Below are positions 6,849-61,893 of a stretch of DNA of 64,000 nt, piece by piece. The stretch is taken from assembly GCA_934140285.1 (NCBI GenBank), contig CAKPBI010000001.1, positions 211,515 through 275,514 on the forward strand, given 5' to 3'. A model generated the notes under the pieces. The model was not told where the DNA came from, ran no database searches, and saw nothing but the letters and a program-made list of their open reading frames with translations. Source of the stretch: an uncultured Bacilli bacterium (GTDB lineage: Bacteria; Bacillota_I; Bacilli_A; ML615J-28; CAG-313). Every line of letters begins with the position of its first letter. The first letter of the stretch is position 1. Both the position numbers and the translations under genes were made by a program.

Positions 6849-7543
6849 AACATTGTAATAAATGTAACATAGATGTTGATACTACTAGAATGACATGTCC
6901 TTTATGTAGGGATGTGTTAGTGGAAAATAATAAACCTTCAACTGATTTTGAACCATATGAAGGATATAAACCAAAACCCGTAAAACTTCATATCGCAAGA
7001 AGAATTTTTATTTTCTTGTCTATTATGATATGTAGTGTTTGTGCGGTAATTAATGCTTTGACATATAAAGGAACAATATGGTCGCTTGTAGTTATTGGTG
7101 GTATCATCTATTTATGGGTATTAATTAAAGGAACAATTATTTCAAGACGTAACATTGCTTTAAAATTAGTTTTACAAGCCCTTGCGATAACAATATTACT
7201 ACTTCAAATTCAATTAATAACGCCAAATGTTCATTGGTTAACGCCCTATGCTTTACCATTTATAATGATTGGAACTATATTTTCCATTACATTGTTGATA
7301 TTTATTAAGACAATGCGTTACAAAGATTATATGTTATATTTAATCGCTGTTGCCTTGGTTGGTACTTTGCCGTTGATTCTATCATTCACTAAATCAGTTA
7401 AACCATTGTTTATTTTAAATGATAAATTAATACTATGGCCAAGTATTGCGAGTGCATTATATGCGGTATTGACAATTGTTGGAATGTTTATTTTTGGTGA
7501 TAGAGCTACCAAAGATGAATTTAAAAAAAGATTTCATATATAG
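6845..7543 (+). CDS. Zinc-ribbon (CxxC..CxxC) N-terminal domain fused to a six-helix membrane protein, function unknown
   Basis: CNKCN..CPLCRD at the N-terminus; ATGA overlap with the upstream acyltransferase indicates translational coupling. Confidence 0.5.
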   Translation: MKHCNKCNIDVDTTRMTCPLCRDVLVENNKPSTDFEPYEGYKPKPVKLHIARRIFIFLSIMICSVCAVINALTYKGTIWSLVVIGGIIYLWVLIKGTIISRRNIALKLVLQALAITILLLQIQLITPNVHWLTPYALPFIMIGTIFSITLLIFIKTMRYKDYMLYLIAVALVGTLPLILSFTKSVKPLFILNDKLILWPSIASALYAVLTIVGMFIFGDRATKDEFKKRFHI

Positions 7544-41200: not shown

Positions 41201-42797
41201 AGAATTCCAAATTATAGCTTCAATTGAACCAAGTGATGCATACTTTAAAACAGTATACTATGAATCAAGTAATACTGATATTCTTCAAGTTACATCAACA
41301 GGATTAGTAAAAGCAATCAATGTTGGTACTGCTAAGATAACTATGCGTGACTATATGAGCTTAGTTGTTGTTGAAAGAGAAATAACTGTATATTCACATG
41401 ATTCAATTGATGCAAGTTTTGAAGGTGTATACAATGGAACAATTAAGCCAGAAGATACACTCCAATTAAATGTTAAAGCATTTGGTAAAAATGCAGCCTC
41501 TGCAACATTTGTATTTGAATCATTAAATCCAGAAATTGTTTCTGTATCTGCAACTGGTTTAATTACAGCTATAAAAGATGGCTATGCAGAAATATTAATT
41601 AAGACAGTTGGTATGGAAGCTAACCTAACAATTGGTGTTACTGTTAAATCATTAGGAAATGAAACAAGTATTGATAAATTATTATCATTATTAGTAAATG
41701 GTCATTTCTCAACAGTACAAAGTGGCAACGTAAGCTTATATAATGATGGTACAACTAAAGTATTTGTTCCAACATATGGAAGTGTAAATAGATTCTTATT
41801 TGATGAATATGTTGTTAATGAAACATATTATGCAAAAACTGAAACGAACCCAAATAATCACAAAGATCGTCGTGACGTTGATACAATTGAATTCGTAACT
41901 ATTCATGATACAGCAACTCTTACTGGTACCGTTGAATCAATTGCTCAAGTAATGTCATCAGGCGAAACATCAATTCATTATACAGTTGGTAATGATGCGA
42001 TATTTGGTGTTGTACCAGAAAAATACATTGCATACCATGCTGGTGATGGAACTAAGAATACATTTGTTTGGACTAAGACAAATGCAAAAGCAACACAAAA
42101 TGTAAAACCTGAATATGATGTAGTCAATGTTGACGGAAAATACTACTTAAGTGTAAATAATGAAGTAACGACAATTACTATTCCAAGTACGGGAACAAAA
42201 GAACCAACAAAAGATTTATTCACTCATTTAGGTCCTGTATGGAAAGTTATTGATGGCTATTATTACATTGGCGGACCATTATGGTATTCTGATTATGGAA
42301 GAATTTCATCATTTGGTGGAAACTGTAATTCAATTGGTATTGAAATGTGTGTTAATACATCAGGTGATATATATGATACATGGCAAAGAACCGCAATGCT
42401 TGTTGCAGATATCTTAATTAGAAATAATCTTGATCCAACCAGAGTTAAGCAACACAATACATGGTCAGGTAAGAACTGTCCTCAATCTGTAATTGAAGGA
42501 AGCTTCTGGCAATGCATGATGGAAATGATCGAACTACAATATGAAGTAAGAACTAAATATAAAGATGCAAAAATTTCGATTGTATCTCATAATCCTGAAA
42601 TTGTTGATAACACTGGTAGAGTAATTAGTGCTCCTGAAAAAACAACAACAGTAGCTTATACATTAAAAGTTGAACTAAATGGTGAAACAAGAGAAATCAA
42701 ACTATATAGTGTTATTCCTGGTACAACTACTTGGGAACAATGGAATGGAAGCTATCCTGCAAGTAGAATTTGGAACAATAAGGTATATGCACGTTAA
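35247..42797 (+). CDS. Giant (2516 aa) surface lipoprotein. Domain order is Big_2 x2, GDPD-like phosphodiesterase, LB repeats, two right-handed beta-helix modules, Big_2 x2, and a C-terminal MurNAc-L-Ala amidase (amidase_2)
   Basis: Lipobox GIIAC; RBS AGAGGTAAG; domain motifs are listed in the sub-features. Confidence 0.9.
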   Translation: MKKGFLLLVACLLTLGIIACQTTSAELSIENKDVSLEVGETHKLDVKVVNDDDPIFSYKVVDPSIVRVEKGIVTALREGETDVEIGVKYVKGNKVTVHFTVKDNRKISLSADSVYLKAGETTKLEILPKDVFLVDDTCVWSSSDPSVATVKDGIVKAIGAGTAIISVEVDGLKAEITIAVEKEVDVIKPEFILGEGIAEKNFLNWNKPFNPLDGIQAIDNVDGDITSKIEVVGEVDNQTYGFYELTYRVQDEAGNKAEFKRTIEVVWNYDVTFIGHAGSYYGLMNSEEAFLYAVQVLKYQALECDLKQTSDGVFVMSHDETFGGYTISTTPWSVLKDVEVTKSRKAGFPAQNGSVTKDTYTTKLCTLERYLEICRQYNAKAVIELKSSAGITNSDQSRMQALMDEIEKAGMREDTIFLGSQYNCLIWTRENGYSDVECQYLVNSCESDTILERCKKYDLDVSINVTASYSNSEEWLAKYKEAGLKISTYTFTQYVDYPTVQEWINKGADYVTCDWQLMSKLNLPESSNDPDSNITHKVIFKDYDGKVLKEAVVKDGRAAAAPKDPTRLGYRFTGWDKSIVNVKQDLEVTALYEICEYTITYDKNLTTIIKSKWNNKDEFVNELYTDLYNWFITNAEYISTYVQVQNGKVTITKNGQTTSFSNVEELKAIDIYVFEKTVSNFIYQPVKRDSEGKAVIEHSESYFLNSDAYREKYQAMDQYFYNAVKNGYPAYDNTYTPTSAGKIQILFRFHQWVKGTTIAAFNELPAKYIVKDNNEVQAELPTTNLKYTVEDEFDLPSATANVNFLGWFLDRECTIAITKITKGMTGNLVLYAKWEYTIPVVNSKITFELDGGEFEEGYVVPTTYEEGKELVLATPVKEGYIFLGWTLEKDSTEYITSISAAQTGDVTVYAAWKEEAVAVDEILVGPNEEYKTIKDALLVATTNTKIYVKSGTYSEDLVVAYDGIQLIGPNSGMDGTSDKRAVEAIISGKITISKNVKDVKILGFNLTNTTSVYGEGDNENIVVKYNVIEGTAASAGTSGAGIGQIHFVGAIINLVVEHNKFTLKSNVNYYSCVYSQGLITGAEINHNYVTNNCSTSQNVFAFWLRNAAGVINMNENIAYRFAGNYWTFWVGQDKLAENTKITMRDNNFDSDSAANAECGMAVHHAEYESIEINYIGNTFSYCKDTVFSVQGKSTTDTTSTPHITIMYNKILNTSARMRFCVNAKNFYFGKNYSALAYTDQGTPNIKAAEIAKDDFKSTMELDDAYAETKMCAINYELDGGTLPEGAPTKYLPGYATRLVAPTKDGYKFLGWSLTKDGNEYITLIPETATGDLTLYAKFKEIKPSLMVGEGQTYKTLEEALAAATDGDTIEFVSGTYAGGTIAKSVTIIGPNKDINPNKDTRQNEAIFTSDLIIEANNVEINGITLTGEARIVGSESTSIENLTINYILFDNSKVAGSKTAPFYFVPATGVSYKNVVIKYSRINKGTGRQMILYGLEFENLTITNNEFYGPYQTYNDGIKIDDIGAFGTKGEINISDNVFDGYQQYVIWFLRYSYGNYTIESNKYNNIGLAEYHAGVTFKTYSGSKDDELKINYRFNKITNGYMLFRFEEAKVLNGDNCMINVNYNIRENCSGDLFVKNVNPDVIVNADKNYWGTTTLLEKNFLNVTTYADAYQNAQDVPSKEEVEGGSSETKIYSKIIYVLDGGEVSASTRYLEGKEYILPIPTKEDYRFVGWSLTPDGSQIITAISTTTTGDVTVYAIWEAIEYYNITYIYNGGYSNEGLYQNRGENPIAITINNYNNSDGSFWSGKYATDIFITDSSCDPKATFSDRIYIAKNKENGLYEVVSFLQSGASSWPEGAEYVISISNSYNAYYLNIKPITNKIKVGQYVVFGGNIESINNANPTEVCFFDELPTCDQVTVKVGTNDELIKPGLLGYKFLGWFENDKLITSISELKGDTTLSAKWEALNPATGIKIDAFKDEMLTNEEFQIIASIEPSDAYFKTVYYESSNTDILQVTSTGLVKAINVGTAKITMRDYMSLVVVEREITVYSHDSIDASFEGVYNGTIKPEDTLQLNVKAFGKNAASATFVFESLNPEIVSVSATGLITAIKDGYAEILIKTVGMEANLTIGVTVKSLGNETSIDKLLSLLVNGHFSTVQSGNVSLYNDGTTKVFVPTYGSVNRFLFDEYVVNETYYAKTETNPNNHKDRRDVDTIEFVTIHDTATLTGTVESIAQVMSSGETSIHYTVGNDAIFGVVPEKYIAYHAGDGTKNTFVWTKTNAKATQNVKPEYDVVNVDGKYYLSVNNEVTTITIPSTGTKEPTKDLFTHLGPVWKVIDGYYYIGGPLWYSDYGRISSFGGNCNSIGIEMCVNTSGDIYDTWQRTAMLVADILIRNNLDPTRVKQHNTWSGKNCPQSVIEGSFWQCMMEMIELQYEVRTKYKDAKISIVSHNPEIVDNTGRVISAPEKTTTVAYTLKVELNGETREIKLYSVIPGTTTWEQWNGSYPASRIWNNKVYAR
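36046..36795 (+). other. GDPD-like (glycerophosphodiester phosphodiesterase / PI-PLC-X-like) domain with H-A-G in place of the usual H-R-G
   Basis: FIGHAGSYYG followed by ECDLKQTSDGVFVMSHDETF, which corresponds to the E.D..T.DG..V..HD motif. Confidence 0.55.
37995..39010 (+). other. Right-handed parallel beta-helix module 1 (pectate-lyase-like)
   Basis: Opening segment VGPNEEYKTIKDALLVATTNTKIYVKSGTYSE, then repetitive rungs with N/G at turns. Confidence 0.55.
39290..40250 (+). other. Right-handed parallel beta-helix module 2
   Basis: MVGEGQTYKTLEEALAAATDGDTIEFVSGTYAG opening parallels module 1; NxxI rungs. Confidence 0.55.
41870..42520 (+). other. C-terminal amidase_2 (MurNAc-L-Ala amidase) domain carrying the same inserted subdomain as the 1-3543 protein
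   Basis: IEFVTIHDTA..AYHAGDG..IGIE..KQHN..GKNCPQ. Confidence 0.7.
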
Positions 42798-45810: not shown

Positions 45811-45862
45811 GAAGATATCACCAAATATAGGTAAATAACATAAACTATATTAGGTGATAAAA

Positions 45863-47122
45863 ATGAATTATTTCTTAGTGGGAATTAAAGGAACTGGCAT
45901 GAGTGCTCTCGCAATGCTTCTAAAAGATTTAGGAAATAACGTAGTGGGTAGTGATGAAAATAAAGAATATTTTACAGATCCATTACTTAAAGAAAAAAGC
46001 ATTAAATGGTATCCATTTGGTTCAAAATTAAATAATGATTATATATATATTATTAGTAATGCTTATGATCAAACAAACGTCGATGTAAAAAGTATTATAG
46101 ATAATAAATTTGAATATTACTATTATCATAATTTCATTGGGAAAAAACTAAAAAAAGATATAATTGCAATTTCAGGTACTCATGGAAAAACTACTACTTC
46201 AACTTTCCTCAAAGAAATGTTAAATAATAAAACATCATTTATTATTGGTGATGGTAGTGGTGGTGGAACCAACAAATCTAATTTATTAGTTCTTGAAGCA
46301 TGTGAATATCGTGATCACTTTTTAAGTTACAAACCTAATATATTAGTAATAAATAATATTGAAATGGATCACCCTGATTACTTTAAAGATATTAATCAAA
46401 TGCTTAATTCATATCAAAGATTAGTTAATCAATCCGATTTAGTAGTAGTAAATTATGATGATTCTAATGTAAAAAAATTAAAATTTAAAGCAGTACTAAA
46501 AGTAGGTACTCAAAAAGATGCAGATGTAAAATATCATATTCTAGATGAAACAAAAGATAAAACAAAAGTTCAAATTATCATTGGTAAAACATCATATGAA
46601 ATATCAGTTCCCTTTGTTGGTAAACACTTAGTTTATGATTACGTAATGGCATATATCATATGTATCCTTCTTGGAGAAAAACCAAATGTAACAAATATTA
46701 ATCTTCCTCACCGAAGAATAGAAGAATACCAATATGGAAATACTATCTTAGTAGATGATTATGCCCATCACCCAACGGAAATTAAATCGTTAATTGAAAC
46801 GCTAAAAAAGAAATATCCTGATTATAAAATTAATGCGGTATTTCAACCACATACATATTCAAGAACATTAGCTTTAAAGAAAGAATTTAAAGAAGCTTTT
46901 GATTTGTTTGATTCAATTTATCTCGCAAAAGTATTTACTTCAAAAAGAGAAAGTGAAAATGTATATCAACAATTAAAAATAAATAAAATATTTAAAAATT
47001 ATCGTTCATTTACTCCTAAAATATTAGATTTAATTGACAAAAAGAAATTTGAATTATGGATATTCTTAGGTGCAGGAACAATAAGTAAATATATAAAAGA
47101 ATTAATAAAAAATGAAAATTAA
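45863..47122 (+). CDS. Mur-ligase-family protein (MurC-like UDP-N-acetylmuramate--L-alanine ligase)
   Basis: N-terminal FLVGIKGTGMSALA..GSDE (MurC Rossmann) and ISGTHGKTTTS P-loop. ATG at 45863 after AGGTGA (track start 45854 is GTG). Confidence 0.7.
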   Translation: MNYFLVGIKGTGMSALAMLLKDLGNNVVGSDENKEYFTDPLLKEKSIKWYPFGSKLNNDYIYIISNAYDQTNVDVKSIIDNKFEYYYYHNFIGKKLKKDIIAISGTHGKTTTSTFLKEMLNNKTSFIIGDGSGGGTNKSNLLVLEACEYRDHFLSYKPNILVINNIEMDHPDYFKDINQMLNSYQRLVNQSDLVVVNYDDSNVKKLKFKAVLKVGTQKDADVKYHILDETKDKTKVQIIIGKTSYEISVPFVGKHLVYDYVMAYIICILLGEKPNVTNINLPHRRIEEYQYGNTILVDDYAHHPTEIKSLIETLKKKYPDYKINAVFQPHTYSRTLALKKEFKEAFDLFDSIYLAKVFTSKRESENVYQQLKINKIFKNYRSFTPKILDLIDKKKFELWIFLGAGTISKYIKELIKNEN

Positions 47123-50443: not shown

Positions 50444-51520
50444 ATGTCAAAAATCCAAGAATTTAACAATCTATTACAAGATGCAATTAATGAAGGAGCA
50501 TTTCCAGGTGCAAACTATGCAATAGTTTTTAAAGATAAAGTATTATTTGGTTCCTTTGGAAAGAAAAGTTTAATTCCAAATGTTGAAGAAAATGATATTG
50601 ATACAATCTATGATATGGCATCACTAACAAAAATTGTAAGCACTACAACCGCTGCCTTAAGATTAATTGAAAAAGGAAAACTTCGTTTATATGCACCAGT
50701 AAAAAAATATCTTCCTGAATTCAAATTTGATAATATTTCAATATGGAATTTAATGACACATACCTCAGGATTACCTGAAGGATTGCCTCATGCAAACACT
50801 CTAAGTGATCCAACTGAAGTATGGAATAAAATATTAAATATGGAATTAAAATATGAAACAGGAACTAAAATTCATTATTCAGATTTAGGTTATATTATCC
50901 TTGGAAAAGTTATAGAAAGTATTGTAAAGAAACCTTTAAATGAATTTGTTAAAGAGGAAATTTTTGATAAACTAAATATGAAAGATACAGGCTATCTTCC
51001 AGATTCTTTATTAAGATGTGCCCCAACTGAATATCGTGATGATGCAGTCTTTAAAGGAATTGTTCGTGGAAAAGTTCATGATGAAACATCATATGCTTTA
51101 GGTGGAGTAGCAGGTCATGCTGGTTTATTTTCAACAGTAAAAGATATGGCTAATTATTTACAAATGCTTTTAAATGATGGAATGTTTAATAATGAACACT
51201 TCTTATCAAAGGCAACAATTGATTTATTGTATACCCCACAAGTAGAAGAAAGAAATGGTGTATCATTAGTACTTGAAAGAAGATCAATCGGTTTTGTTAA
51301 TAAAGGTCCAGCCTCATCTGCTGGAGAATTAACAAGTAGTGAAACTATTCTTCATACAGGTTTTACCGGAACTAACATCTGGGTTGATCGAAAGAATGAA
51401 GTAGCTTTCGTACTACTTTCAAACCGTGTTCATCCAACTCGTAAGAATATCTTACATATGGATGCAAGAGCAAGACTTGCTAACTTTATAATCGCAAATC
51501 TTGATGAACTAAAAAAATAA
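50444..51520 (+). CDS. Class-C beta-lactamase-related serine hydrolase
   Basis: S-x-x-K motif (MASLTKIV), YxN-like and HxG elements; RBS AAGGAG; 12 nt after the tyrS stop. Confidence 0.8.
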   Translation: MSKIQEFNNLLQDAINEGAFPGANYAIVFKDKVLFGSFGKKSLIPNVEENDIDTIYDMASLTKIVSTTTAALRLIEKGKLRLYAPVKKYLPEFKFDNISIWNLMTHTSGLPEGLPHANTLSDPTEVWNKILNMELKYETGTKIHYSDLGYIILGKVIESIVKKPLNEFVKEEIFDKLNMKDTGYLPDSLLRCAPTEYRDDAVFKGIVRGKVHDETSYALGGVAGHAGLFSTVKDMANYLQMLLNDGMFNNEHFLSKATIDLLYTPQVEERNGVSLVLERRSIGFVNKGPASSAGELTSSETILHTGFTGTNIWVDRKNEVAFVLLSNRVHPTRKNILHMDARARLANFIIANLDELKK

Positions 51521-51536
51521 AGAAAGGAAAAATACA

Positions 51537-52220
51537 ATGAAAACTATTTTAGCAATCGGTGGTCACATTGGTGACATGGAACTTACCGCTGGTGGCATAA
51601 TGGCTACAAATGCAGTAAGAGGTGGAAAAAACATAATAATGGCACTAACTGCTGGTGAAAGAGGAAACCCTCCTCATATGACAATTCAAGAATACCGTAA
51701 ACAAAAGATTGAAGAAGCAAATAAGTTTGCGGAAATGGTAAATGGTGAAGCAATAGTTTTGAAATATGCTGATGGTGAGCTTCCTAATAATGATGAAGTA
51801 ATTAATGAAGTTGTTGATGTAATTGTAAAATATAAACCAAATGTAATCGTAACACATTGGCAAAGTACAATGCATCGTGACCATAACAACACCCATTTGA
51901 TTGTTCAAGAAGCCCAATTTAGAGCAGGTGTTGTAGGAAATAAAAATGGTGAAAGATTTTATGCGCCCCTTTATTTTTGTGAAAACTGGGAAGACTCAGA
52001 TAACTTTACACCATATGTTTATGTAGATATTACTGAAGGATTTGAATTATGGAAAAAAGCAATTCAAACGCATTGGTTTATTATGAATAGTAGTGACTTT
52101 AAATACTTTGATTACTATACATCACTTGCTCGCTGTCGTGGTGCTTTAATGAAAAAAGGCTATGCTGAATGCTTTGCTGTGCTCGACAGACAAAAGAAAA
52201 TATTTAAGGATGAACTATAA
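51537..52220 (+). CDS. PIG-L/LmbE-family N-acetylglucosaminyl deacetylase
   Basis: N-terminal LAIGGHIGDMELTAGG (variant of the AHPDDE segment); HxxH-type elements; 227 aa. Confidence 0.6.
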   Translation: MKTILAIGGHIGDMELTAGGIMATNAVRGGKNIIMALTAGERGNPPHMTIQEYRKQKIEEANKFAEMVNGEAIVLKYADGELPNNDEVINEVVDVIVKYKPNVIVTHWQSTMHRDHNNTHLIVQEAQFRAGVVGNKNGERFYAPLYFCENWEDSDNFTPYVYVDITEGFELWKKAIQTHWFIMNSSDFKYFDYYTSLARCRGALMKKGYAECFAVLDRQKKIFKDEL

Positions 52221-55159
52221 TGAAGAAAATATTAAGTATATTTTTAAGTCTATTTCTTCTTACAACTTTATCATTTTCTAATATTGTAAATAGTAAAAGT
52301 GATGATGAAGATTTCTTATTTTCGAATAAAAGTGGACCTCTATCAAAAATATATCATTATGGTACAGGTGAACCAGTAACTCTTCCTAAGAAATTTACTG
52401 TCTATGAATCAGAAATGCGTGGAGTATGGGTTGCTACTGTTTACAACATTGCGATTGGTAAACAAAATGGATTGGATAGTGAAGCCATCAATAGTTATAA
52501 AAAAGAATTTCTAACCATTCTTGATCGAATGGAAGAATTTGGAATGAACACATTATTCTTTCAAATAAGACCAAGTAATGATGCTTTTTATAAATCGGAA
52601 TTAAACCCATGGAGTGAATTCCTAGTTAGTGCTGGTGTTGACCCAGGATGGGATCCTCTTGAATGGATGATTGAAGAAACTCACAAACGTGGTTTTGATT
52701 TTCAATGTTGGATGAATGCTTATCGTGTAACAACATATAGTGTTTTAGATGATACAAGCAAAAAAGCAAGTACATACAGCAATGCTGACCTTTTAAAATT
52801 TAAAGAAAAAGCTATTGAAAAACTTGCTCCAAATAATTTTGCAAGGTTACATCCTGAATATGTTGTAATGGGAGAACATGATACAAGATTAATCTTAAAT
52901 CCAAGTGAAATTGCAGTTCAAGATTTTATTGTCGCAACCTTGAAAGAAATCATTGAAAATTATGATATTGACGGTATGCATTTTGATGACTACTTCTATC
53001 TAAATGGTTCTGTATCAAGTGATAAAGTTAATACTAACTTTGCTGGTGGAGAAAAATATGATAGTTCCTTATCAGGAAAAAATACCCTAAATGATTTAGG
53101 AAACTACCAAGAATACTTAAATAATGATCCTAAGTATGCTCATATGGAAAGAGGATATTCACTAGGTGATTTTAGAAGAGAAAACATCAATGTTATGATG
53201 CGTAGAATTCGTGCTATGGTTGATGAATACAATGAAACTAATAATAAAATAGTTGAATTTGGTTCCAAACCTGCTGCAGTATGGCGTAGTAATTCTGAAT
53301 ATTGTACAGAAAGTGTTGACCGTTGTTCACCAGATGGTTCTAATACCGTATCAGGTGCTTACTCATCATACTCAGATCTTTTTGCTGACACATGGAAATG
53401 GGTAGAAGAAGGATTAGTTGACTATGTAGCTCCACAAGTATATTATGCCTTTGAAGACAATGTTGCTGCCTATGCTGATATCGTTGATTGGTGGGCAAAG
53501 AAGGTAACGGAATTAAATAAAGTACGCACTAGTGAAGGGAAAAAAGAAATCAAATTGTATGTTGCTCATGGAATATATAAATATCGTGATGCTCCATCAC
53601 AATTTTATAATCCATCAGAGATTAGAAACCAAATTGTTTATAATAAAAAATATCCGGTTATTAAAGGTTCGGCTTTATATTCATATGAAAATCTTTATGT
53701 TTTCTCTAGTGAAACTCATGAAAAAGGAATATCATTCTTGAAAAACAATTGGGTTAATAATCCAGTTTATCCAATCCAACGTGGTAATGATGATTCGGAA
53801 GGTTTAGTTGTGAAAGACTATAAATTATCTATGGATACACTAGACAATAGTGTAAATATTACCTTTGATAAAATGCCTTCTTCAAGAGTGTATGGTATAT
53901 ATAAAGTTTTAAAAGGAACAGAATTTACAGCGAGTGTAGATTCACGAATTAATGTAACTTATGATCCATATGTTGCAGGTGAAAAAGCAACACTTAGAAT
54001 TTATGATTATGATGAAAACTATGATTACTATGTAAAAGTAGTATCAACAAATGGTTATGTTTCATCACTTTCAACAAAACTAGATTTTACTAATATGGAA
54101 GAATACGAATCAATTAAAATTAACTATCTATCACAACTTCCAACCGAAATTAAATGTAATGAAACAATAAATTTAAGATTTAACATCTCAAATTTAACAA
54201 ATCATAATCTAGAATATACAGTAAATTATTTTGAAAATGATGTTGACAAAAAAAGAGTAATTGCGAGTGGAAGTATTACTTCAAATACATTTGAAATTCC
54301 ATATAAAGCATACCCATATACAACATCAAATTCACAACTAAAAATAACCATTACTGATGGTACTGCTTCAATTAGTGTTCTTACAAATAAGTTTAATACG
54401 GTAAATGAATATACACAATTAAATGTCAAAGATTTTACCAAAATTCAAACAAGATTTAGTTATAAAACTCCTGTTTCAATTGATGTAAGTATAAATAGTA
54501 CAAATGATTTAGAGTATAATTATGTACTATTAGCGGTTAATGAAGCAAACTATACTACAGAAGAAGTAAAAAAAGGAACATTGAAAGGAAGTACAACCCT
54601 AACTCTTGATGATATTAAGTTAAGTGAGGGAACATACCATTTTGTTCTAAAACTTACTCAAAACGATTATTCAACAACATATACATCTAATACATTTAAA
54701 GTAATTAGAACCAACTATCTAGATAATACTAGTATAAAGATTACTGACTATAATCCAGTTGTAGGGAAAAATATAATTATTAATATTTCAACTTATGGAA
54801 TAAACGGCTATAATTATAAACTACTACTTCTTGATAATGATAATAATATAATCAAAGTTTTGGATGAAGGTATCGTTGAAGGTAATTATATAGGTACAAT
54901 GTATAAAATTAATGAAAGCGACACATCATTTAAGATAAGAGTAATAATTGACAACAAAGGCATTACTGAATATTTAGATAGCGATTTAGTTGTTGTAAAA
55001 AAAGAAGTAGAACCTGATGATCCTACCCCTACTCCAGTTCCAGATGATCCTGTAGTGGATGATAAAAAAGGATGTAATTGTAAAAAATCAATATTGGAAG
55101 TTACTACTTTAATAATTACTTTAACATGTTTTATGTTTATAGTAAGAAAAAGAAAATAG
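52220..55159 (+). CDS. GHL10 (YngK-like, 'family 10 glycosylhydrolase'-like) paralog 1: secreted, Ig/FN3-like C-terminal repeats, KGCNCKK-TM-RKRK C-terminal anchor
   Basis: Signal peptide; GHL10 motifs MRGVWVATV..N, LFFQIRPSNDAFYKSELNPWSE, DPGWDPLEWMIEE and DGMHFDDYFY. Confidence 0.75.
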   Translation: MKKILSIFLSLFLLTTLSFSNIVNSKSDDEDFLFSNKSGPLSKIYHYGTGEPVTLPKKFTVYESEMRGVWVATVYNIAIGKQNGLDSEAINSYKKEFLTILDRMEEFGMNTLFFQIRPSNDAFYKSELNPWSEFLVSAGVDPGWDPLEWMIEETHKRGFDFQCWMNAYRVTTYSVLDDTSKKASTYSNADLLKFKEKAIEKLAPNNFARLHPEYVVMGEHDTRLILNPSEIAVQDFIVATLKEIIENYDIDGMHFDDYFYLNGSVSSDKVNTNFAGGEKYDSSLSGKNTLNDLGNYQEYLNNDPKYAHMERGYSLGDFRRENINVMMRRIRAMVDEYNETNNKIVEFGSKPAAVWRSNSEYCTESVDRCSPDGSNTVSGAYSSYSDLFADTWKWVEEGLVDYVAPQVYYAFEDNVAAYADIVDWWAKKVTELNKVRTSEGKKEIKLYVAHGIYKYRDAPSQFYNPSEIRNQIVYNKKYPVIKGSALYSYENLYVFSSETHEKGISFLKNNWVNNPVYPIQRGNDDSEGLVVKDYKLSMDTLDNSVNITFDKMPSSRVYGIYKVLKGTEFTASVDSRINVTYDPYVAGEKATLRIYDYDENYDYYVKVVSTNGYVSSLSTKLDFTNMEEYESIKINYLSQLPTEIKCNETINLRFNISNLTNHNLEYTVNYFENDVDKKRVIASGSITSNTFEIPYKAYPYTTSNSQLKITITDGTASISVLTNKFNTVNEYTQLNVKDFTKIQTRFSYKTPVSIDVSINSTNDLEYNYVLLAVNEANYTTEEVKKGTLKGSTTLTLDDIKLSEGTYHFVLKLTQNDYSTTYTSNTFKVIRTNYLDNTSIKITDYNPVVGKNIIINISTYGINGYNYKLLLLDNDNNIIKVLDEGIVEGNYIGTMYKINESDTSFKIRVIIDNKGITEYLDSDLVVVKKEVEPDDPTPTPVPDDPVVDDKKGCNCKKSILEVTTLIITLTCFMFIVRKRK
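55004..55159 (+). other. C-terminal tripartite anchor of paralog 1: Pro/Asp-rich linker, KGCNCKK motif (55070), one TM helix, RKRK tail
   Basis: VEPDDPTPTPVPDDPVVDDKKGCNCKKSILEVTTLIITLTCFMFIVRKRK. Confidence 0.7.
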
Positions 55160-55164
55160 TATTT

Positions 55165-55196
55165 AGAGGGCTAAGAAATCTTAGCCCTTTTATTTC
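55165..55196 (+). terminator. Rho-independent terminator
   Basis: AGGGCTAAGA-aat-TCTTAGCCCT followed by TTTATTTCT. Confidence 0.85.
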
Positions 55197-55274
55197 TAAA
55201 ATATTTGCTATTTTAAAGAAAATATTATATAATAAAGTTACTAAAAACAAAAAATAAAAAAAGGGAGAATGACA

Positions 55275-56174
55275 ATGAAAATATATGATACACATAGTGA
55301 TGTTTTTTCAAATTTATACGAAAGAACTTTAGAAGGTATTAAAGATCCTTTTCGAAAATATCATTTAGAAGCCATGAAACAAGGGGAAATACATGGAGGA
55401 ATTTGGGTAGTTTATAGTGAGTATGATTTTAATGTACTAGAAGCCTATAAAATAGCATATGAAGCCTTTAAGCCATATAAAGATAATTATGATGTATTAC
55501 TTGGATTAGAAGGCCTTCGTAATGTTCATACATTAGATGATTTAAATGAAATGTATAATTTTGGTGTAAGACATGCTACGCTTACATGGAATGAAGAAAA
55601 TCATCTAGCAACAGGGGTTGCGGGAGACAAAGATCGTGGATTAACAAACCTTGGAAAAGAATTTTTGGATTATATGTATAAACATCATATGGTCATTGAT
55701 GTATCACACTTAAATATAAAAAGTTTTTATGATGTTTTAGAATATATGCCTCATAATATTATCGCAAGTCATTCTAATGCATATACTTTAAGTGATCATC
55801 GCCGAAACTTAAATGATGATCAACTTAGATTAATGAGAGAAGTAGGAGGATATGTAGGAGCCGTTAGTGCGAGAAACTTTGTTTCGAAAGATCCAAGCCT
55901 ACAAAACACGATCGGTCTTGCCGATCAAATCATTTATCTTGGCGAAAAAATAGGAATTGATCATGTTATGCTTGGCCTTGACATTATGGATTTCTTAAAG
56001 AGCTACGATGATCATAATGCCAACTTAGATGATTTAAGAGGCCATATGGATGCTCAAAATTTAATTAAAGAATTAACGAAGAGAAATCTAACCAAAGAAG
56101 AAATCGAAGGAATAGCTTATAATAATTTTTTAAGATATAAGAAAGGAATAAAAGTTAATGAAGAAATTATTTAA
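55275..56174 (+). CDS. Membrane-dipeptidase (peptidase M19, renal-dipeptidase-like) family protein
   Basis: N-terminal IYDTHSDVF (parallels IDGHNDL) and HSNAYTLSDHRRNLNDDQL; start ATG 55275 after AAGGGAG. Confidence 0.7.
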   Translation: MKIYDTHSDVFSNLYERTLEGIKDPFRKYHLEAMKQGEIHGGIWVVYSEYDFNVLEAYKIAYEAFKPYKDNYDVLLGLEGLRNVHTLDDLNEMYNFGVRHATLTWNEENHLATGVAGDKDRGLTNLGKEFLDYMYKHHMVIDVSHLNIKSFYDVLEYMPHNIIASHSNAYTLSDHRRNLNDDQLRLMREVGGYVGAVSARNFVSKDPSLQNTIGLADQIIYLGEKIGIDHVMLGLDIMDFLKSYDDHNANLDDLRGHMDAQNLIKELTKRNLTKEEIEGIAYNNFLRYKKGIKVNEEII

Positions 56175-58665
56175 AAAAGTAGCCCTTATGGGAATTTGTT
56201 TGTTGGCCTTCTTCATGCTAATTTGTACAACTATATCAAAAGCAGCATGGGATGGAAAATTTGTTCCATATACTCAAGTATCTACAGATATGCGAGCTGT
56301 GTGGGTTGCGACTGTCGGTAATCTTAATATTGACCGTCAACTAGGTACAGATGAAGCTGCCATTTCATCATGGAAGAATGAATATATCAAAATATTAGAT
56401 AATGCTGAAGCAAATCATTTTAATACAATCGTATTCCAAGTAAGACCTGCAAATGATGCATTTTATCCATCTAAGTATAATCCATGGAGTGAGTATTTAG
56501 CAGGATATGGTGTTGATCCTGGCTGGGATCCTCTTGAATGGATGATTGAGGTGACCCATAATAGAGGCCTTGAATATCATGCATGGCTAAATCCTTATCG
56601 TGCATCAACTGGTTCCACTACTTCTATGATGGTAAAAGATCCAGCGACAGGTATTGAAAAAATTAAAGATATTGATGTTACTGAATTAAATAACTTTAAA
56701 GACACATACTTTGGAAGAAAGAAAGAACAAGCAGAAGGCATTGATAATCCAGTTTTTGAAACTGGTAATGAACTTCATCATAATGTTGTGCTTGGAGCAG
56801 AAGATTTGTTTGTTTTAAATCCTGCATCAGAAAAAGTAAGAAATCATGTTACAAATACCATAATGGAAATTGTAGAAAACTATGACATTGATGGAATTCA
56901 TTTTGATGACTATTTTTATCCAAATGATGCATCTTATATAGGAAGTAATGCAGCTTATAAGGGTTATACCTTCTCAACAGAACCATGGGTTGATATGGCT
57001 GATTATGAACAATATGTAAGTGAAACTACGACTCCTCTTAATATATATGATTGGCGCCGTGAAAATGTAAATAAACTAATTAAACAAATTAGTGATGCAG
57101 TTAGAGAAAAGAATAATACTAAAGAAGTAAAATGTGCATTTGGCATAAGCCCCGCATCACGTTGGGCACCTACTGTTGAGGCTTGTTCAAGTGAACCTCA
57201 AAGAGGAGCAGAAGGCGGAATGCTTGGTAGTTGTAATAACTATTATTCATATTCAGACTTATTTGCTGATACCTTAAAATGGGCTAAAGAAGAATGGATA
57301 GATTATATTACTCCTCAAAATTATACTCACCTAAAAGGTGATTATGATGTTATTGCTAAATGGTGGAGTAACGCTTTAAAGGATAGCAAAACTAAACTAT
57401 ATATGGGTACTGCCCTATATCAAGTAAAGGAATCTTGGGGATATGGTTTAACAGAAATGTACTACCAAGTAACTTACAATTCTGCTCATCTTGAAAAAGT
57501 AGAAGGATATTTCATATTTAGTTATTCAAGCTTACTTACTCGTGATGGTGGCCTTGCTATGTCAACTGTCGCAAAATATGCTTGGAAATATAATGCTTTA
57601 ACTCCACTTTATGGAGCATATACATATGATAAAAAGGTAGCACAAAAGGCTACTCCTAAAAATATTAATATTGAAGAAAACCAAGTATCAATTAAAGTTA
57701 ATAAGGTTGACAAAGCTAAGGGTTATGGAATATATGAATTTGATGAACAAACTTCAAACCTTGGTGATTTTGTCCCTTCAAACCTTAGAGCCTTAGAAAT
57801 TAATCCTAATAAAGAACTAACATTTACAAAAAATGAAAACAAGGTATATGCTCTTGTAACTTTTGATCAAGATAACTCAATCTATGAAGATGTTGAATGG
57901 TTAGTACTAGAAAATAATCGCCCAACCGTAGATTTAAAAGTAAACAAAAATCAATTTTTATATGATGAAGAAATAAATGTAGATGTAACAATTGAAGATG
58001 ATGATAGTGATTATTATTATTTAACAATTATATATTCTTCAAATGGTTCATCAATTGGTACGGAAATTGTCAAGGATGAAAAAATAACATCTAAAGAATA
58101 TCATACTACATTTAAAGCACCACATTTTTCTACTAACAATGGAAAGATAATTGTAATAGTAAAAGACATAATTGATACTGTTCAAGTGGATGCACCAATT
58201 TCTATCAAGAGTGCACCACCAGTAGTCACGCTTCCAAAGATTGATGATTTTCATATAAAAACAGTTCAAAACTTTAAAGTAACGATTACAGATGATGAAC
58301 AAACAAACTTAAATTATAAACTATATATCTCTGTAGAAGATGGAGAATATGAACTAATAGATGAAGGAAAAATTAAACCTGGAGAATTAACATTTAATTA
58401 TTCAACAATTATTCCTCATATAAATTGTAAATTCAAACTCGTAGTAAGTGATAATGATAATCAAGTTGAAGTTACATCTAATACATTTAATATTACAAAA
58501 CTAGTAGAACCTGATGATCCAGGTGATAATGATCCAGATACAGAACCTGAACCAGAAGTTCCAACCAAACCAAAGGGTTGTAATTGTAAGAAAAATATTG
58601 AGCTAGTGCTTGCTGGTATAACAATTATTACTTGTGCTTTATTTATTATAAGAAAGAGAGACTAA
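56158..58665 (+). CDS. GHL10 paralog 2: secreted, Ig-like C-terminal repeats, KGCNCKK-TM-RKRD C-terminal anchor
   Basis: Signal peptide; MRAVWVATVGN, TIVFQVRPANDAFYPSKYNPWSE, DPGWDPLEWMIE and DGIHFDDYFY. Confidence 0.75.
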   Translation: MKKLFKKVALMGICLLAFFMLICTTISKAAWDGKFVPYTQVSTDMRAVWVATVGNLNIDRQLGTDEAAISSWKNEYIKILDNAEANHFNTIVFQVRPANDAFYPSKYNPWSEYLAGYGVDPGWDPLEWMIEVTHNRGLEYHAWLNPYRASTGSTTSMMVKDPATGIEKIKDIDVTELNNFKDTYFGRKKEQAEGIDNPVFETGNELHHNVVLGAEDLFVLNPASEKVRNHVTNTIMEIVENYDIDGIHFDDYFYPNDASYIGSNAAYKGYTFSTEPWVDMADYEQYVSETTTPLNIYDWRRENVNKLIKQISDAVREKNNTKEVKCAFGISPASRWAPTVEACSSEPQRGAEGGMLGSCNNYYSYSDLFADTLKWAKEEWIDYITPQNYTHLKGDYDVIAKWWSNALKDSKTKLYMGTALYQVKESWGYGLTEMYYQVTYNSAHLEKVEGYFIFSYSSLLTRDGGLAMSTVAKYAWKYNALTPLYGAYTYDKKVAQKATPKNINIEENQVSIKVNKVDKAKGYGIYEFDEQTSNLGDFVPSNLRALEINPNKELTFTKNENKVYALVTFDQDNSIYEDVEWLVLENNRPTVDLKVNKNQFLYDEEINVDVTIEDDDSDYYYLTIIYSSNGSSIGTEIVKDEKITSKEYHTTFKAPHFSTNNGKIIVIVKDIIDTVQVDAPISIKSAPPVVTLPKIDDFHIKTVQNFKVTITDDEQTNLNYKLYISVEDGEYELIDEGKIKPGELTFNYSTIIPHINCKFKLVVSDNDNQVEVTSNTFNITKLVEPDDPGDNDPDTEPEPEVPTKPKGCNCKKNIELVLAGITIITCALFIIRKRD
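58504..58665 (+). other. C-terminal tripartite anchor of paralog 2: acidic/Pro linker, KGCNCKK motif (58576), TM helix, RKRD tail
   Basis: VEPDDPGDNDPDTEPEPEVPTKPKGCNCKKNIELVLAGITIITCALFIIRKRD. Confidence 0.7.
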
Positions 58666-58667
58666 AT

Positions 58668-59918
58668 ATGAAACTAAATAAATATCGTAGTGATGAATAT
58701 GTACATTATTGGAATTCTGATGAAGTCGTAGAAATTCCTGAATATCATTTTGACAAGCAAAGTGTAAGAGGCGTATGGGTATCTACCGTAGCTAATATTG
58801 ATGTTCCTAAAGGCCTACCTGAAAATGAATATAAAGAATACTTAACAAAGATGATTGAAAATATTGCAAATTATAACATTAACACAATAATTTTCCAAGT
58901 TCGTCCTAACAATGATGCTTTCTATCCATCAAAACTAAATCCATGGTCTAGATATATAACGGGAGAAGAAGGTAAAGATCCTGGTTTTGATGTTTTAAAA
59001 TATGTCATTGAGGAAGCTAAAAAACATGATATTAAAGTACATGCTTGGATGAATCCATATAGAGTATCACAAGCATCATTAGATCAACTAAACATGACAA
59101 AAGAGGAATATTTAGCGACTCTTGCACCAAACAATTTTGCAAGACTTCATCCTGAACACACTATCTTAGATGGTGCTAATAAAATAATTCTTTCTCCAAG
59201 TCATCCCGAAGTAATTGATTTTGTTACTAAAACTATAATGGAAGTTGTTGACAACTACGATGTGGAAGGTGTTCACATAGATGATTACTTCTATCCATAT
59301 GCAAAAATCCCAGAAGAAAGAGAACAAGAAGATTATTTAAAATATCGTTTAGATGAAACACAATGCCTTGATGATTTTAGAAGAATGAATGTAAATAAAA
59401 TGATTAAGAACATTCATGATGCATTGAAAAATTCGTTTAGCAAAAATAATAAAAAAGTTTTATTTGGAATTAGTCCTTTCGCAATCTATCGTACAAATTC
59501 TGCTATTCTTGAAGGTGGTTGGGAAAAAGGATCATACAATGCTGCTGGTGCATTACAATGCTATAGTGAACTTTATTCCGATGTTTACCTTTGGATGAAG
59601 GAAAATTGGATTGATTATGTAGTACCTCAAGTATACTTCCCATTTGAAAGAAAAGATGTTACATACCATGATCTAACAAAATGGTGGAGTGATATTTGTA
59701 ATGAAACACATACGATTCTTTACATCGGTATGGGATTATATCAAATGGGTTCTAATGAAGTATGGCAAAATCCAAATGAAATTGAAAATCAATTAAGATT
59801 TAATTGTAATTTTAATAACGTTGCGGGGACAATCTTTTTCACATATCATGATCTTGTAAAAGGTCAAAATGAAATAAAAGATGAAGCATTAGATACGATT
59901 AAAAAATTATGGAAATAA
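58668..59918 (+). CDS. GHL10 paralog 3: catalytic domain only, with no signal peptide and no C-terminal anchor
   Basis: VRGVWVSTVAN, TIIFQVRPNNDAFYPSKLNPWS, DPGFDVLKYVIEE and EGVHIDDYFY; ATG 2 nt after the upstream stop. Confidence 0.7.
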   Translation: MKLNKYRSDEYVHYWNSDEVVEIPEYHFDKQSVRGVWVSTVANIDVPKGLPENEYKEYLTKMIENIANYNINTIIFQVRPNNDAFYPSKLNPWSRYITGEEGKDPGFDVLKYVIEEAKKHDIKVHAWMNPYRVSQASLDQLNMTKEEYLATLAPNNFARLHPEHTILDGANKIILSPSHPEVIDFVTKTIMEVVDNYDVEGVHIDDYFYPYAKIPEEREQEDYLKYRLDETQCLDDFRRMNVNKMIKNIHDALKNSFSKNNKKVLFGISPFAIYRTNSAILEGGWEKGSYNAAGALQCYSELYSDVYLWMKENWIDYVVPQVYFPFERKDVTYHDLTKWWSDICNETHTILYIGMGLYQMGSNEVWQNPNEIENQLRFNCNFNNVAGTIFFTYHDLVKGQNEIKDEALDTIKKLWK

Positions 59919-59922
59919 ACAA

Positions 59923-59952
59923 AGAGCATCCTAAATTGGATGCTTTTTTCTG
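59923..59952 (+). terminator. Rho-independent terminator
   Basis: AGCATCC-taaatt-GGATGCT followed by TTTTTTC. Confidence 0.85.
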
Positions 59953-59999
59953 CTTTTAGTGACAATTTTTGCTAATTTCATTTTTTTTAAGTTTATCAC

Positions 60000-60028
60000 T
60001 TGAATAAAAACGCTTACTTTGATATAAT
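60000..60028 (+). promoter_or_regulatory. Sigma-A promoter (TTGAAT-17-TATAAT with extended TG) of the GH20-like/SBP genes
   Basis: TTGAATaaaaacgcttactttgaTATAAT. Confidence 0.6.
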
Positions 60029-60078
60029 AAGTTAAGTAAATTGGGAAAAAAGCGCAAACCTTAAGGAGATGGCAAAAT

Positions 60079-61893
60079 ATGTATATAGTTCCTACCCCCA
60101 AGTCTTTCCAAACAACCTCTGGAAAATTCAATTTAAATCGTGAATTAACAATTAAAAACAATGAATTTTCTGAGAATTTAATTGAGATATTAAAGAAAGA
60201 TTTAAAGCTTAAAGACATAAAATTAAATAACGAGACATCATGTATAGATATAGAATTTATATACAGTAAAAAGTTAAAAAAAGAAGAATACTTAATAGTA
60301 GTTAATCCTAACAAAATTGAGATAACAGCATCAACTGAAGCTGGAATCTTTTATGGGATAAAAACATTAAAACAATGTGTTGAAAACAAAAACATTGAGT
60401 GTTTTGAGATAAAAGATTACCCTGATCTTGAAATCAGAGGGGCAATGATTGATATAAGTCGTTCAAAAGTTCCAACATTAAAAACTTTAAAAGAAATAGT
60501 TCAAATTTTATCAGATTTAAAATACAATCATTTAGAACTTTATGTTGAAGGCTTTTCATATGAGTATCAAAGTTTTAAAGATGTGTTAGTTGAAAAAAAT
60601 TATATAACGCTTAATGATTACCTTGAATTGGAAACGTTTACGGAAAAGAACTACATCGATCTTGTTCCAAATCAAAATGGCTTTGGTCATATGAATGCTT
60701 GGCTTATGAAAAAAGAATATCATGAACTAGCTGAATGCCCTGATGGATTTACTATATGGGGATCTCATCGCTCTTCAAGTACTTTAGATCCAACCAATCC
60801 TAAGAGTTTTAAACTTGTGAAAAAGATGTATGATGATATGCTACCACATTTCAAATCAAAATATTTTAATATGAATTTTGATGAACCTTATGAATTAGGT
60901 CACGGAAAAAGCAAAGAAGCATGTGAAAAAACATCAGTTGCGGATGTATACATTGATTTTTTACTACCACTTTATAAGGTAGTTAAAAAATATAAAAAGA
61001 CGCCACTTATGTGGGGTGATGTATTAATTCATCATCCTGAGGCTTTAAATCGTTTACCAAAAGATTTAATCTTTGTAGATTGGGGTTATAACTTAAATTA
61101 TGACTTTGAATCACATGGGAAAATGCTTAGGGAACACGATGTAAAATTTATGATGGCTCCAGGAACTTCAACATGGAGTACCATCACTTCTAGATACTAT
61201 GATATGGTTGGTTCAATAAAAAATAGTTCAGAAGCAACCAAAAAGTATCAAGGACTTGGTCTTTTAGTTACTGATTGGGGTGACATTGGTCATTTACAAT
61301 ATTTGCCATTTAGTTATCCAGGATTTATCTATGGATCTGAATGTGCATGGTCAAAGCCAAATGAAGAAATAATTAAACCATATCTTGATAAATTAGTTGG
61401 TCCTATTTCTTCAAATGCAATTTTAAAACTTGCTACATACACTACTCTTGAAGGTGAGTATCGTGACTATGGTAGCAGATTGTTCAGCGCAATTTTATGG
61501 GCTGAACACTCACAAAATCAAGGAGATCAAATTAAATACTTCTTGGAAAAAATGAAATCAAATCTAATTGAAGATAAAAACCTAAAACAATTAGAAACGA
61601 TGTTTAATGATGTAATAAGAGATATTCGTTTAGAAGACACTTTAGTTAAAGGAGAAATTGAAAACAGCATAAATTTACTTTTAACTTTAGTTGATATTCA
61701 ACGCAATCTAAAAAAAGTGCTTTTCAATGATGAACACAACGTATTTGAAAAAGACATCTTAATTCTTAATGCTTTTATTAAAAAACATCATGAATTATGG
61801 TCAATCAGAAACGTTGAAGCTGGGTTTATTCCTAGCAGTAATCGTATTAAATGGCTAATTAATATTTTGACAGCTATAGATGGAAGGAGATAA
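60079..61893 (+). CDS. GH20-like beta-N-acetylhexosaminidase-family protein (cytoplasmic) with divergent catalytic motifs
   Basis: RGAMIDISRSKVP..LKYNHLELYVEG parallels RGxMLDxxR..N.LHLHLTDD of GH20; NMNFDEPYE lies at the H-x-GGDE position; RBS TAAGGAG. Confidence 0.5.
   Translation: MYIVPTPKSFQTTSGKFNLNRELTIKNNEFSENLIEILKKDLKLKDIKLNNETSCIDIEFIYSKKLKKEEYLIVVNPNKIEITASTEAGIFYGIKTLKQCVENKNIECFEIKDYPDLEIRGAMIDISRSKVPTLKTLKEIVQILSDLKYNHLELYVEGFSYEYQSFKDVLVEKNYITLNDYLELETFTEKNYIDLVPNQNGFGHMNAWLMKKEYHELAECPDGFTIWGSHRSSSTLDPTNPKSFKLVKKMYDDMLPHFKSKYFNMNFDEPYELGHGKSKEACEKTSVADVYIDFLLPLYKVVKKYKKTPLMWGDVLIHHPEALNRLPKDLIFVDWGYNLNYDFESHGKMLREHDVKFMMAPGTSTWSTITSRYYDMVGSIKNSSEATKKYQGLGLLVTDWGDIGHLQYLPFSYPGFIYGSECAWSKPNEEIIKPYLDKLVGPISSNAILKLATYTTLEGEYRDYGSRLFSAILWAEHSQNQGDQIKYFLEKMKSNLIEDKNLKQLETMFNDVIRDIRLEDTLVKGEIENSINLLLTLVDIQRNLKKVLFNDEHNVFEKDILILNAFIKKHHELWSIRNVEAGFIPSSNRIKWLINILTAIDGRR

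Follow-up and report, generated by a model that had tools for sequence, protein, structure and literature searches.

The DNA analyzed here, referred to below as the window, is a stretch of 64,000 nucleotides with a GC content of 30% from an uncultured Bacilli bacterium (assembly GCA_934140285.1, contig CAKPBI010000001.1, positions 211,515 to 275,514 of the forward strand). The subject of this report is the C-terminal tail of a secreted GHL10 protein, paralog 1, which is encoded in the window next to two further GHL10 genes; the features and neighboring genes are collected in Table 1. The catalytic domain of paralog 1 was recognized by Pfam model PF02638 (E=8.6e-48). Translation of 55004-55159 (+) gave EVEPDDPTPTPVPDDPVVDDKKGCNCKKSILEVTTLIITLTCFMFIVRKRK followed by a stop codon, which is the C-terminus of the 979-aa open reading frame (ORF). 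An earlier note on this DNA had described the end of this protein as a linker, the motif KGCNCKK, a transmembrane (TM) helix, and RKRK behind an N-terminal signal peptide; the translation confirmed this layout, and a Sec-type signal could be read from the sequence.

Paralog 2 (GHL10 domain, E=9.7e-56) carries the same type of tail, and its C-terminus reads KPKGCNCKKNIELVLAGITIITCALFIIRKRD followed by a stop codon. A six-frame scan of the window found C-x-C-[KR] tails of this kind in paralogs 1 and 2 only. Paralog 3 lacks both signal peptide and tail and is presumably cytoplasmic; it thus serves as an internal control, indicating that the tail accompanies export. Its ORF can be extended to a TTG at 58632, which would make it overlap the paralog 2 tail, and the public gene call begins at 58668.

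Table 1. Positions of the tails, their carrier genes, and the neighboring genes in the window
Feature	Position	Strand	Basis or remarks
GHL10 paralog 1, 979 aa	52220-55159	+	signal peptide, GHL10 catalytic domain (aa 65-432), beta-rich C-terminal domains, linker, Cys tail
Paralog 1, Sec-type signal peptide, about aa 1-25 (approximate end)	52220-52294	+	read from sequence; starts MKKILSIFLSLFLLTTLSFSNIVNS
Paralog 1, acidic/Pro-rich linker EVEPDDPTPTPVPDDPVVDD, aa 929-948	55004-55063	+	translation
Paralog 1, signature K-K-G-C-N-C-K-K, aa 949-956	55064-55087	+	translation, alignment
Paralog 1, Cys952	55073-55075	+	alignment; Cys after Gly, sole invariant column across 85 diverse tails
Paralog 1, Cys954 (second Cys)	55079-55081	+	tail comparison; conserved only in the closest clade
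Paralog 1, hydrophobic helix SILEVTTLIITLTCFMFIV, aa 957-975 (19 residues)	55088-55144	+	Ser/Thr-rich, single Glu near the outer end
Paralog 1, basic cluster RKRK, aa 976-979, and stop codon	55145-55159	+	predicted cytoplasmic
GHL10 paralog 2, 835 aa	56158-58665	+	signal peptide and same type of tail
Paralog 2, signature K-G-C-N-C-K-K, aa 806-812	58573-58593	+	Cys808 at 58579-58581
Paralog 2, hydrophobic helix NIELVLAGITIITCALFII, basic cluster RKRD, and stop codon	58594-58665	+	
GHL10 paralog 3, 416 aa	58668-59918	+	without signal peptide, without tail
PBP4B/AmpH-like beta-lactamase-fold protein and PIG-L-family deacetylase	50444-52220	+	conserved upstream partners of tailed GHL10
M19 membrane-dipeptidase-family gene between the tailed paralogs	55275-56174	+	Pfam; syntenic in L145
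GH20 beta-N-acetylhexosaminidase-family gene	60079-61893	+	followed, mostly past the window, by a 1127-aa protein and ATP-binding cassette (ABC) permeases

Between the two tailed paralogs, identity was 34% for the catalytic domain and 28% for the C-terminal domains, and G-C-N-C-K-K was identical at all six positions. The DNA encoding the tails was approximately 58% identical, and the Lys and Gly codons of the motif differed synonymously (AAA/AAG and GGA/GGT). These synonymous differences inside the motif rule out gene conversion between the adjacent paralogs and, in genes so diverged, indicate that the motif has been kept by selection.

We then considered 120 GHL10 homologues chosen by their catalytic domain, with identities down to approximately 35%. 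A TM helix with a basic tail was present in 114 of them, and in 106 of these 114 tails a Cys lay 19-27 residues ahead of the basic cluster, where their own Cys frequency would give 7.9, although the set is phylogenetically related and a binomial P on it is only indicative. Four of the remaining eight tails had R/T-G-C slightly further out, and four were without Cys. The motif in paralog 2 had been held in the earlier note not to be due to chance, and the identity of 34%, the diverged DNA, and this enrichment of Cys among homologues bear it out; further instances of the tail are many, and the Cys is conserved in orthologues. A single Cys was found in 73 of the 106 tails, CxxC in 21, and CxC in 12 (approximately 11%). 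Alignment of 85 diverse tails revealed the Cys after Gly as the sole invariant column; its predicted location is the outer membrane face. Among 43 full-length carriers of different families, this Cys was likewise invariant, with Gly and one Lys conserved at 90% or more.

Residue statistics were drawn from 187 unique tails. Gly preceded the Cys in 82% of them, Lys, Ser, or Thr occupied position -2 in 88%, Lys occupied -3 in 56%, and Lys occupied +1 and +2 in approximately 60%. The number of juxtamembrane Cys residues was one in 78% and two in 21%. The last Cys lay 21-22 residues from the basic cluster in 74%, the cytoplasmic tail was 3-6 residues long in 96%, and Ser and Thr made up approximately 19% of the helix core. 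The consensus can be written as K-[KS]-G-C-(x-C)-K-K. Comparable linkers rich in Pro, Asp, Glu, or Thr stood ahead of most related tails. In a MAFFT alignment, G-C-N-C-K-K appeared as G-C-K-K plus an inserted 'C-x', and the CxC form was confined to the closest orthologues, with C-x-C-[KR]-K kept in both window paralogs and the four closest of these (P0002-P0005). The earlier description of an invariant C-N-C pair thus did not hold, as only one Cys is invariant. The second Cys is a clade-specific extra, which makes the metal or disulfide site proposed for the pair unlikely as a conserved function.

A profile of the tail covering 42 positions was searched against 1.84 billion cluster representatives and matched 77 at E<=1e-3, five of them at E<=1e-10. 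The match ended no more than two residues from the C-terminus in 74 of the 77. Among 43 profile-matched carriers of at least about 220 aa that were classified with Pfam, NAGPA proteins were the most frequent (21), followed by metallophosphatase/purple acid phosphatase proteins (Pur_ac_phosph_N and Metallophos; 4) and GHL10 proteins (3); the others included Flg_new, Big_2, fn3, or HL_N-beta proteins. A further carrier, an 817-aa protein of L142, had no Pfam domain. The carriers have N-terminal Sec-type signal peptides. One profile match, P0159 (233 aa), has an N-terminus that appears cytoplasmic and may carry the one Radical_SAM match, which was not traced; a miscalled or chimeric gene of a fragmentary assembly is more probable here than a true carrier.

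One genome per species was also scanned at the DNA level for G-C-K-K, 17-23 codons, [RK]3-K, and a stop codon, followed by filters for frame, hydrophobicity, and ORF length. Among the matches listed, 75 were out of frame, 39 were in frame without hydrophobicity, and at least six were genuine tails, all listed ones in metagenome-assembled genomes of gut 'Bacilli bacterium'. None of the six was shown to be GHL10: four were NAGPA phosphodiester glycosidases, one was a purple-acid-phosphatase/metallophosphatase with Flg_new repeats, and the sixth (L007) was cut by the contig end, so that its family was not assignable. A tighter pattern applied to metagenome contigs gave 14 stretches, six of which held seven genuine tails on the same kinds of carrier. 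The named sources of homologues were 'Bacilli bacterium', 'Mollicutes bacterium', 'Acholeplasmataceae bacterium', and Anaeroplasma bactoclasticum. RNase J was 83% identical to that of a 'Bacilli bacterium' and 66% identical to that of an 'Erysipelotrichaceae bacterium', which placed the organism only at the level of 'Bacilli bacterium'.

A tail detector applied to long ORFs of related loci found a TM helix with a basic tail in 12 of 70, all 12 with Cys, whereas in 825 kb of unrelated genomes it found such an end in 4 of 755 ORFs, none with Cys. An ordinary anchor also occurs on the same contig, approximately 6 kb past the window end (L141, 18105-20042). This 645-aa secreted protein with NHL/TPR-like repeats has a C-terminal helix without a juxtamembrane Cys and a cytoplasmic tail of approximately 21 residues. 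The earlier note had seen in the tail a tripartite module resembling a sorting signal, and its recurrence at the extreme C-terminus of unrelated secreted enzymes, independent of the carrier domain, agrees with this. Judged by sequence comparison, the tail is an independent domain that unrelated secreted proteins share. In several carriers (P0041, P0205, P0227/P0229, L007 4664-4795(-), and L014 1394-3901), a small conserved motif K-T-C-x-x-C-G-x-T-x-G-E was located just ahead of the tail and resembles a mini zinc-ribbon or knuckle.

The gene order PIG-L, tailed GHL10, M19, tailed GHL10, cytoplasmic GHL10, GH20, and ABC system is syntenic in assembly L145. Paralog 1 and L145_A, and paralog 3 and L145_C, were reciprocal best matches at about 530-543 bits. 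Paralog 2 matched L145_B best (342 bits), but L145_B scored 377 bits to its neighbor L145_A, so that the orthology of paralog 2 and L145_B rests on synteny as well. Paralog 3 was 63% identical to L145_C, whereas the secreted paralogs were only 31-42% identical. Both window paralogs carry K-G-C-N-C-K-K, and both L145 orthologues carry G-G-x-x-C-x-M-G...P... instead. In L142, of an Acholeplasmataceae-type group, the tailed GHL10 ends in K-T-G-C-F-S-A and the unrelated 817-aa protein of the same locus in P-E-T-G-C-G-S-S, the pattern common to the two being x-T-G-C-[FG]-S-[AS]. These comparisons suggest that the signature follows the genome and not gene orthology, and that it co-evolves with a trans-acting factor, since a concerted change of the motif in old paralogs and unrelated proteins is expected if one such factor reads all tails. 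The same argument has been made by Haft for lineage-specific forms of MYXO-CTERM (10.1101/2023.06.07.544157).

The locus spans 50444-61893 and continues beyond the window (L141, to about 141.9 kb), and it is syntenic in L124, L125, L145, and L142. The 1127-aa protein after GH20 matches by position the 1119-aa SBP_bac_1 protein of L145, and the L142 locus adds AnmK, a MurR-type regulator, GH4, and an Amidase_2 surface protein. The loci of tailed enzymes are uptake loci that also encode ABC permeases and GH3 or GH20 enzymes. From its gene content, the tailed-GHL10 locus looks like a peptidoglycan/muropeptide scavenging locus, and such scavenging has been predicted for these lineages (PMC10868615). 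A MurC-like ligase is encoded at 45854-47122 (+); it scored 276 bits, under the equivalog cutoff of 335 bits, and this neighbor is conserved in L124. The organism may therefore still build or recycle peptidoglycan precursor and is not necessarily wall-less.

The full proteins and the isolated window tails were compared with NCBIfam release 20, which gave two weak partial matches only (E=0.06-0.08) and no CTERM model at cutoff. Apart from these two, the window tails had no model match at E<=10, in line with the earlier statement that the motif is neither LPXTG nor a named CTERM class. When 85 tails were scanned singly, sub-threshold CTERM matches were scattered over many unrelated models (Loki 14, LPXTG 13, Heimdall 11, JDVT 3, and MYXO 1), as a helix and basic cluster in common would give. 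Tripartite signals that contain Cys have been described as MYXO-, JDVT-, Synerg-, and CGP-CTERM; they have an invariant Cys, often with a second one close but non-adjacent, and lipidation of the Cys followed by cleavage by myxosortases of CPBP/Rce1 type is presumed (10.1101/2023.06.07.544157). Cleavage of TraA by MrtX has been demonstrated experimentally and depends on Cys residues (PMC11980579). Firmicutes, Bacillota, and Mollicutes are not mentioned in the Cys-CTERM paper (10.1101/2023.06.07.544157), and a search of full-text literature found no description of such a signal in Firmicutes/Bacillota/Mollicutes lineages. The tails conform to none of the four definitions, but the architecture is not wholly new in kind, and these Cys-containing CTERM signals are the closest to it.

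MYXO-CTERM (TIGR03901), the substrate of MrtX, shares with the tails the tripartite layout at the extreme C-terminus, the Gly before the invariant Cys, the presence on many unrelated secreted proteins, and a signature that diverges lineage by lineage. It often has a second, non-adjacent Cys nearby (GCGC), comparable to GCNC in the window tails. However, it belongs to Myxococcota with a diderm envelope and needs a type II secretion system, whereas the window lineage is Bacilli; it has no charged residues after the Cys, where the tails have K-K and often D/E, and its helix region is free of charged residues and Pro; and its model matched no window tail and only 1 of 85 related tails (E=1.3e-4). 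No myxosortase homologue was identified in the regions examined here. Synerg-CTERM (TIGR04564), paired with MrtS, has a Ser/Gly-rich cluster that ends in a single invariant Cys and an invariant Pro in a Leu-rich helix; in the orthologous GHL10 pair of L145, the subclass-ii tails (GGGSSCQMG..LVPML..) are closely similar to it. The best such tail reached 15.0 bits against a cutoff of 22.5 bits, the phylum is a different one (Synergistales), and the window tails lack both the Pro and the Gly/Ser cluster and had no match to this model.

JDVT-CTERM (NF033191) has a single Cys and a near-invariant Asp-Pro before a Leu-rich helix; 3 of the 85 tails matched it (best E=1.6e-4), one scoring 12.9 bits against a cutoff of 27 bits, and no DP motif was present. 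CGP-CTERM (TIGR04288), paired with MrtA, is likewise a tripartite signal with Cys and a low-complexity linker ahead, in a single-membrane organism, and its occurrence in Thermococcales indicates that Cys-containing signals are not limited to diderms. It differs in its Cys-Gly-Pro signature, where the tails have Gly-Cys-Lys-Lys, with K/K at +1/+2 in most and as a rule no G-P, in its length of about 20 residues, and in being archaeal, and it was absent from the model matches of the 85 tails. PGF-CTERM, processed by archaeosortase A, is similar in that removal of a C-terminal helix is coupled to lipid attachment in a single-membrane cell and in its low-complexity linker, but it is archaeal, has no Cys in its signature, and depends on an unrelated enzyme family. 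The LPXTG signal of sortase A (TIGR01167) has the same tripartite geometry and serves the display of secreted enzymes on Gram-positive-type surfaces; here, the window tails are without P-x-T-G, and the invariant residue is Cys. The lipobox, [LVI][ASTVI][GAS]C, marks the end of the N-terminal signal helix in the Lgt/Lsp pathway. It is alike in placing a Cys at the outer membrane interface, with a small residue (Gly/Ser) at -1 and an adjacent helix that could be removed once the Cys is lipidated, but the order is mirrored, with the tail Cys before the C-terminal helix, and positions -3/-2 are Lys/Lys-Ser and not Leu/Ala-Ser.

On balance, and by analogy, we favor the interpretation that the tail is a Bacilli form of the Cys-containing tripartite sorting signals, with the Cys modified and the helix removed, and we put its chances slightly above even. 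The tail would hold secreted glycan- and peptidoglycan-degrading enzymes on the surface beside ABC importers in gut Bacilli of the Acholeplasma/Anaeroplasma/Erysipelotrichales neighborhood. If MYXO-CTERM with its myxosortase and the related Cys-CTERM systems are a guide, the helix would initially act as a stop-transfer anchor, and the juxtamembrane Cys would then be covalently modified, most likely lipidated. An intramembrane endopeptidase, of CPBP/Rce1 type by the same analogy, would then cut on the distal side of the Cys, releasing helix and basic tail and leaving the enzyme anchored by a C-terminal lipid. The second Cys of C-N-C may be a duplicate acceptor that is optional, comparable to the GCGC form of MYXO-CTERM. 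A need for such a system is suggested by the absence of LPXTG-type C-termini from the window and contig extensions, which do encode lipobox lipoproteins, and by the sortase loss reported for RFN20, ML615J-28, and neighboring orders (PMC10868615).

Several points weigh against this processing. All four described Cys-CTERM classes abut the helix, whereas in the window subclass the Cys is followed by K-K, often with S/D/E, before the hydrophobic core; a signature that directly abuts the helix was found only in subclasses ii and iii. The Pfam lists for the 64-kb window and its contig extensions contained no CPBP (PF02517), rhomboid, sortase, Lgt, or Lsp, and none of these was found within 10 kb on either side of the tailed genes in L124, L125, L141, L142, and L145. 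CPBP (EExxxR, FxxxH, HxxxN/D) and rhomboid motifs were also sought in 21 multi-pass ORFs from about 300 kb of related loci, and none was present. Cleavage and lipidation of the tail are purely an analogy, with carriers that all come from uncultured organisms, and a single-membrane cell has no strict need to swap a helix for a lipid. The carrier repertoire is also narrow, with few hydrolase families rather than dozens, in a sampling biased by the GCKK pattern and the profile.

A DUF624/YesL protein of 225-264 aa with 6-7 TM helices was encountered in independent genomes (L014 706-1410, L037 2499-3293, and L122 6324-7001(-)), situated between ABC permeases and tandem arrays of two or three tailed NAGPA genes, then GH3. 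It was rejected as a tail-specific partner because it is a routine member of sugar-ABC operons, and a role as an accessory to the transporter is more probable than one in tail processing. In the window, multi-pass membrane proteins without an assignment occur only in a cluster by a PadR regulator (4003-4806, 5577-6848, and 6845-7543, all +), which comprises a Pfam-less 6-TM protein, a Pfam-less 423-aa protein, and a DUF6320 protein; the last has 6 TM helices and an N-terminal Cys4 zinc-ribbon-like motif (CNKC...CPLC). No link between this cluster and the tail was seen.

The tail may instead be an unprocessed type-I stop-transfer anchor whose Cys serves reversible S-acylation, a dimerizing intermolecular disulfide, or contact with a lipid or partner; we regard this as the main rival and a serious one, though less likely than processing. 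It agrees with the narrow repertoire and the lack of a processing enzyme near the tailed genes in the loci examined, with the Lys-Lys, often Glu/Asp, that places the Cys slightly outside the hydrophobic core, and with the fact that a helix alone suffices for enzyme display by a single-membrane cell. Such an anchor, however, requires neither an invariant Cys with constant spacing nor the near-invariant Gly ahead of it nor a uniformly minimal cytoplasmic tail of 3-6 residues, and the ordinary C-terminal anchors of the same contig and of unrelated genomes are without Cys. The genome-wise concerted change of the signature without gene conversion points to a common trans-acting factor, although this would also be compatible with a modifying enzyme without cleavage. 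That the C-x-C pair is a functional metal-binding or disulfide unit on an ordinary anchor appears very improbable: it is kept in both window paralogs and P0002-P0005, but most tails have a single Cys, and 'C-x' aligns as an insertion. Chance resemblance or a recent tandem duplication without wider meaning would suit the mere two instances in the 64-kb window, on neighboring paralogous genes, but it is hardly credible in view of the diverged proteins and tail DNA, the hundreds of instances on unrelated proteins, all of them C-terminal, and the enrichment over chance and over unrelated genomes.

A diverged LPXTG-type signal, cleaved by sortase and attached to peptidoglycan, also has to be considered. 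The geometry is the same, P-[KE]-T-G stands directly before the invariant Cys in Acholeplasmataceae-type tails, and one of these exceeded the LPXTG_anchor cutoff (19.2 against 15.9 bits). P-[KE]-T-G-C or bridging forms were seen in L142 18417-20870, P0101, P0108, P0109, P0112, P0118, L122 4357-6315(-), and P0004; bridging forms such as N-K-T-G-C-K-K lead toward the K-K-G-C-K-K of the window type. The weak LPXTG_anchor matches in 13 of 85 tails, a Pro at G-3 in 34 of 187, and the MurC-like ligase, with which some wall material may exist, point in the same direction. However, only 7 of 187 tails have P-x-T-G ahead of the Cys, the window tails (DDKKGC, KPKGC) have no LPXTG_anchor match even at E<=10, and the invariant residue is Cys, not Pro or Thr. 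The window and contig extensions contained neither a sortase gene nor LPXTG-type C-termini, and srtA/B are reportedly missing from RFN20 and ML615J-28, with losses at nodes from which the Acholeplasmatales group descends (PMC10868615). Sortase processing of the window tails is thus improbable; the P-x-T-G-C forms fit better as possible relics of an LPXTG origin, and they may be a lead on that origin, not evidence that sortase processes these tails.

At least five lipobox lipoproteins are encoded in the window and contig extensions, including giant ones at 35247-42797 (+; 2516 aa), 115-3543 (+; the C-terminal portion of a 1485-aa protein), and 31156-34131 (+; 991 aa). Two giant lipoproteins carry a C-terminal Amidase_2 (N-acetylmuramoyl-L-alanine amidase) domain and Flg_new/Big_2 repeats. 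As predicted from these sequences, the organism anchors most of its large surface proteins by an N-terminal Cys and none by LPXTG. We tentatively add a bolder proposal, which we consider doubtful but worth stating: an undescribed, Bacillota-specific, Cys-dependent sorting system may have replaced sortase anchoring after sortase loss in Acholeplasma/RFN20/ML615J-28-type lineages, with the series P-[KE]-T-G-C, K-T-G-C-K-K, and K-[KS]-G-C-K-K recording derivation from LPXTG and with a processing enzyme that is perhaps not CPBP.

To date, descriptions of Cys-containing C-terminal signals come from Myxococcota, some Proteobacteria, Synergistales, and Thermococcales. Their presence in gut Bacilli, which are monoderm and partly wall-less, would, if true, extend the principle to Bacillota and offer a possible answer to how large hydrolytic enzymes are displayed on the surface in lineages reported to be sortase-less. 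The P-x-T-G-C intermediates provide a testable hypothesis of one sorting signal evolving into another. With about 30 residues, the tail is also a compact substrate for finding the Cys-modifying enzyme, which has not yet been identified even for MYXO-CTERM. In gut bacteria that are abundant but uncultured, it marks the surface depolymerases of loci for scavenging glycan and peptidoglycan. A hidden Markov model of the tail would sharpen the annotation of carriers that are now just 'family 10 glycosylhydrolase'.

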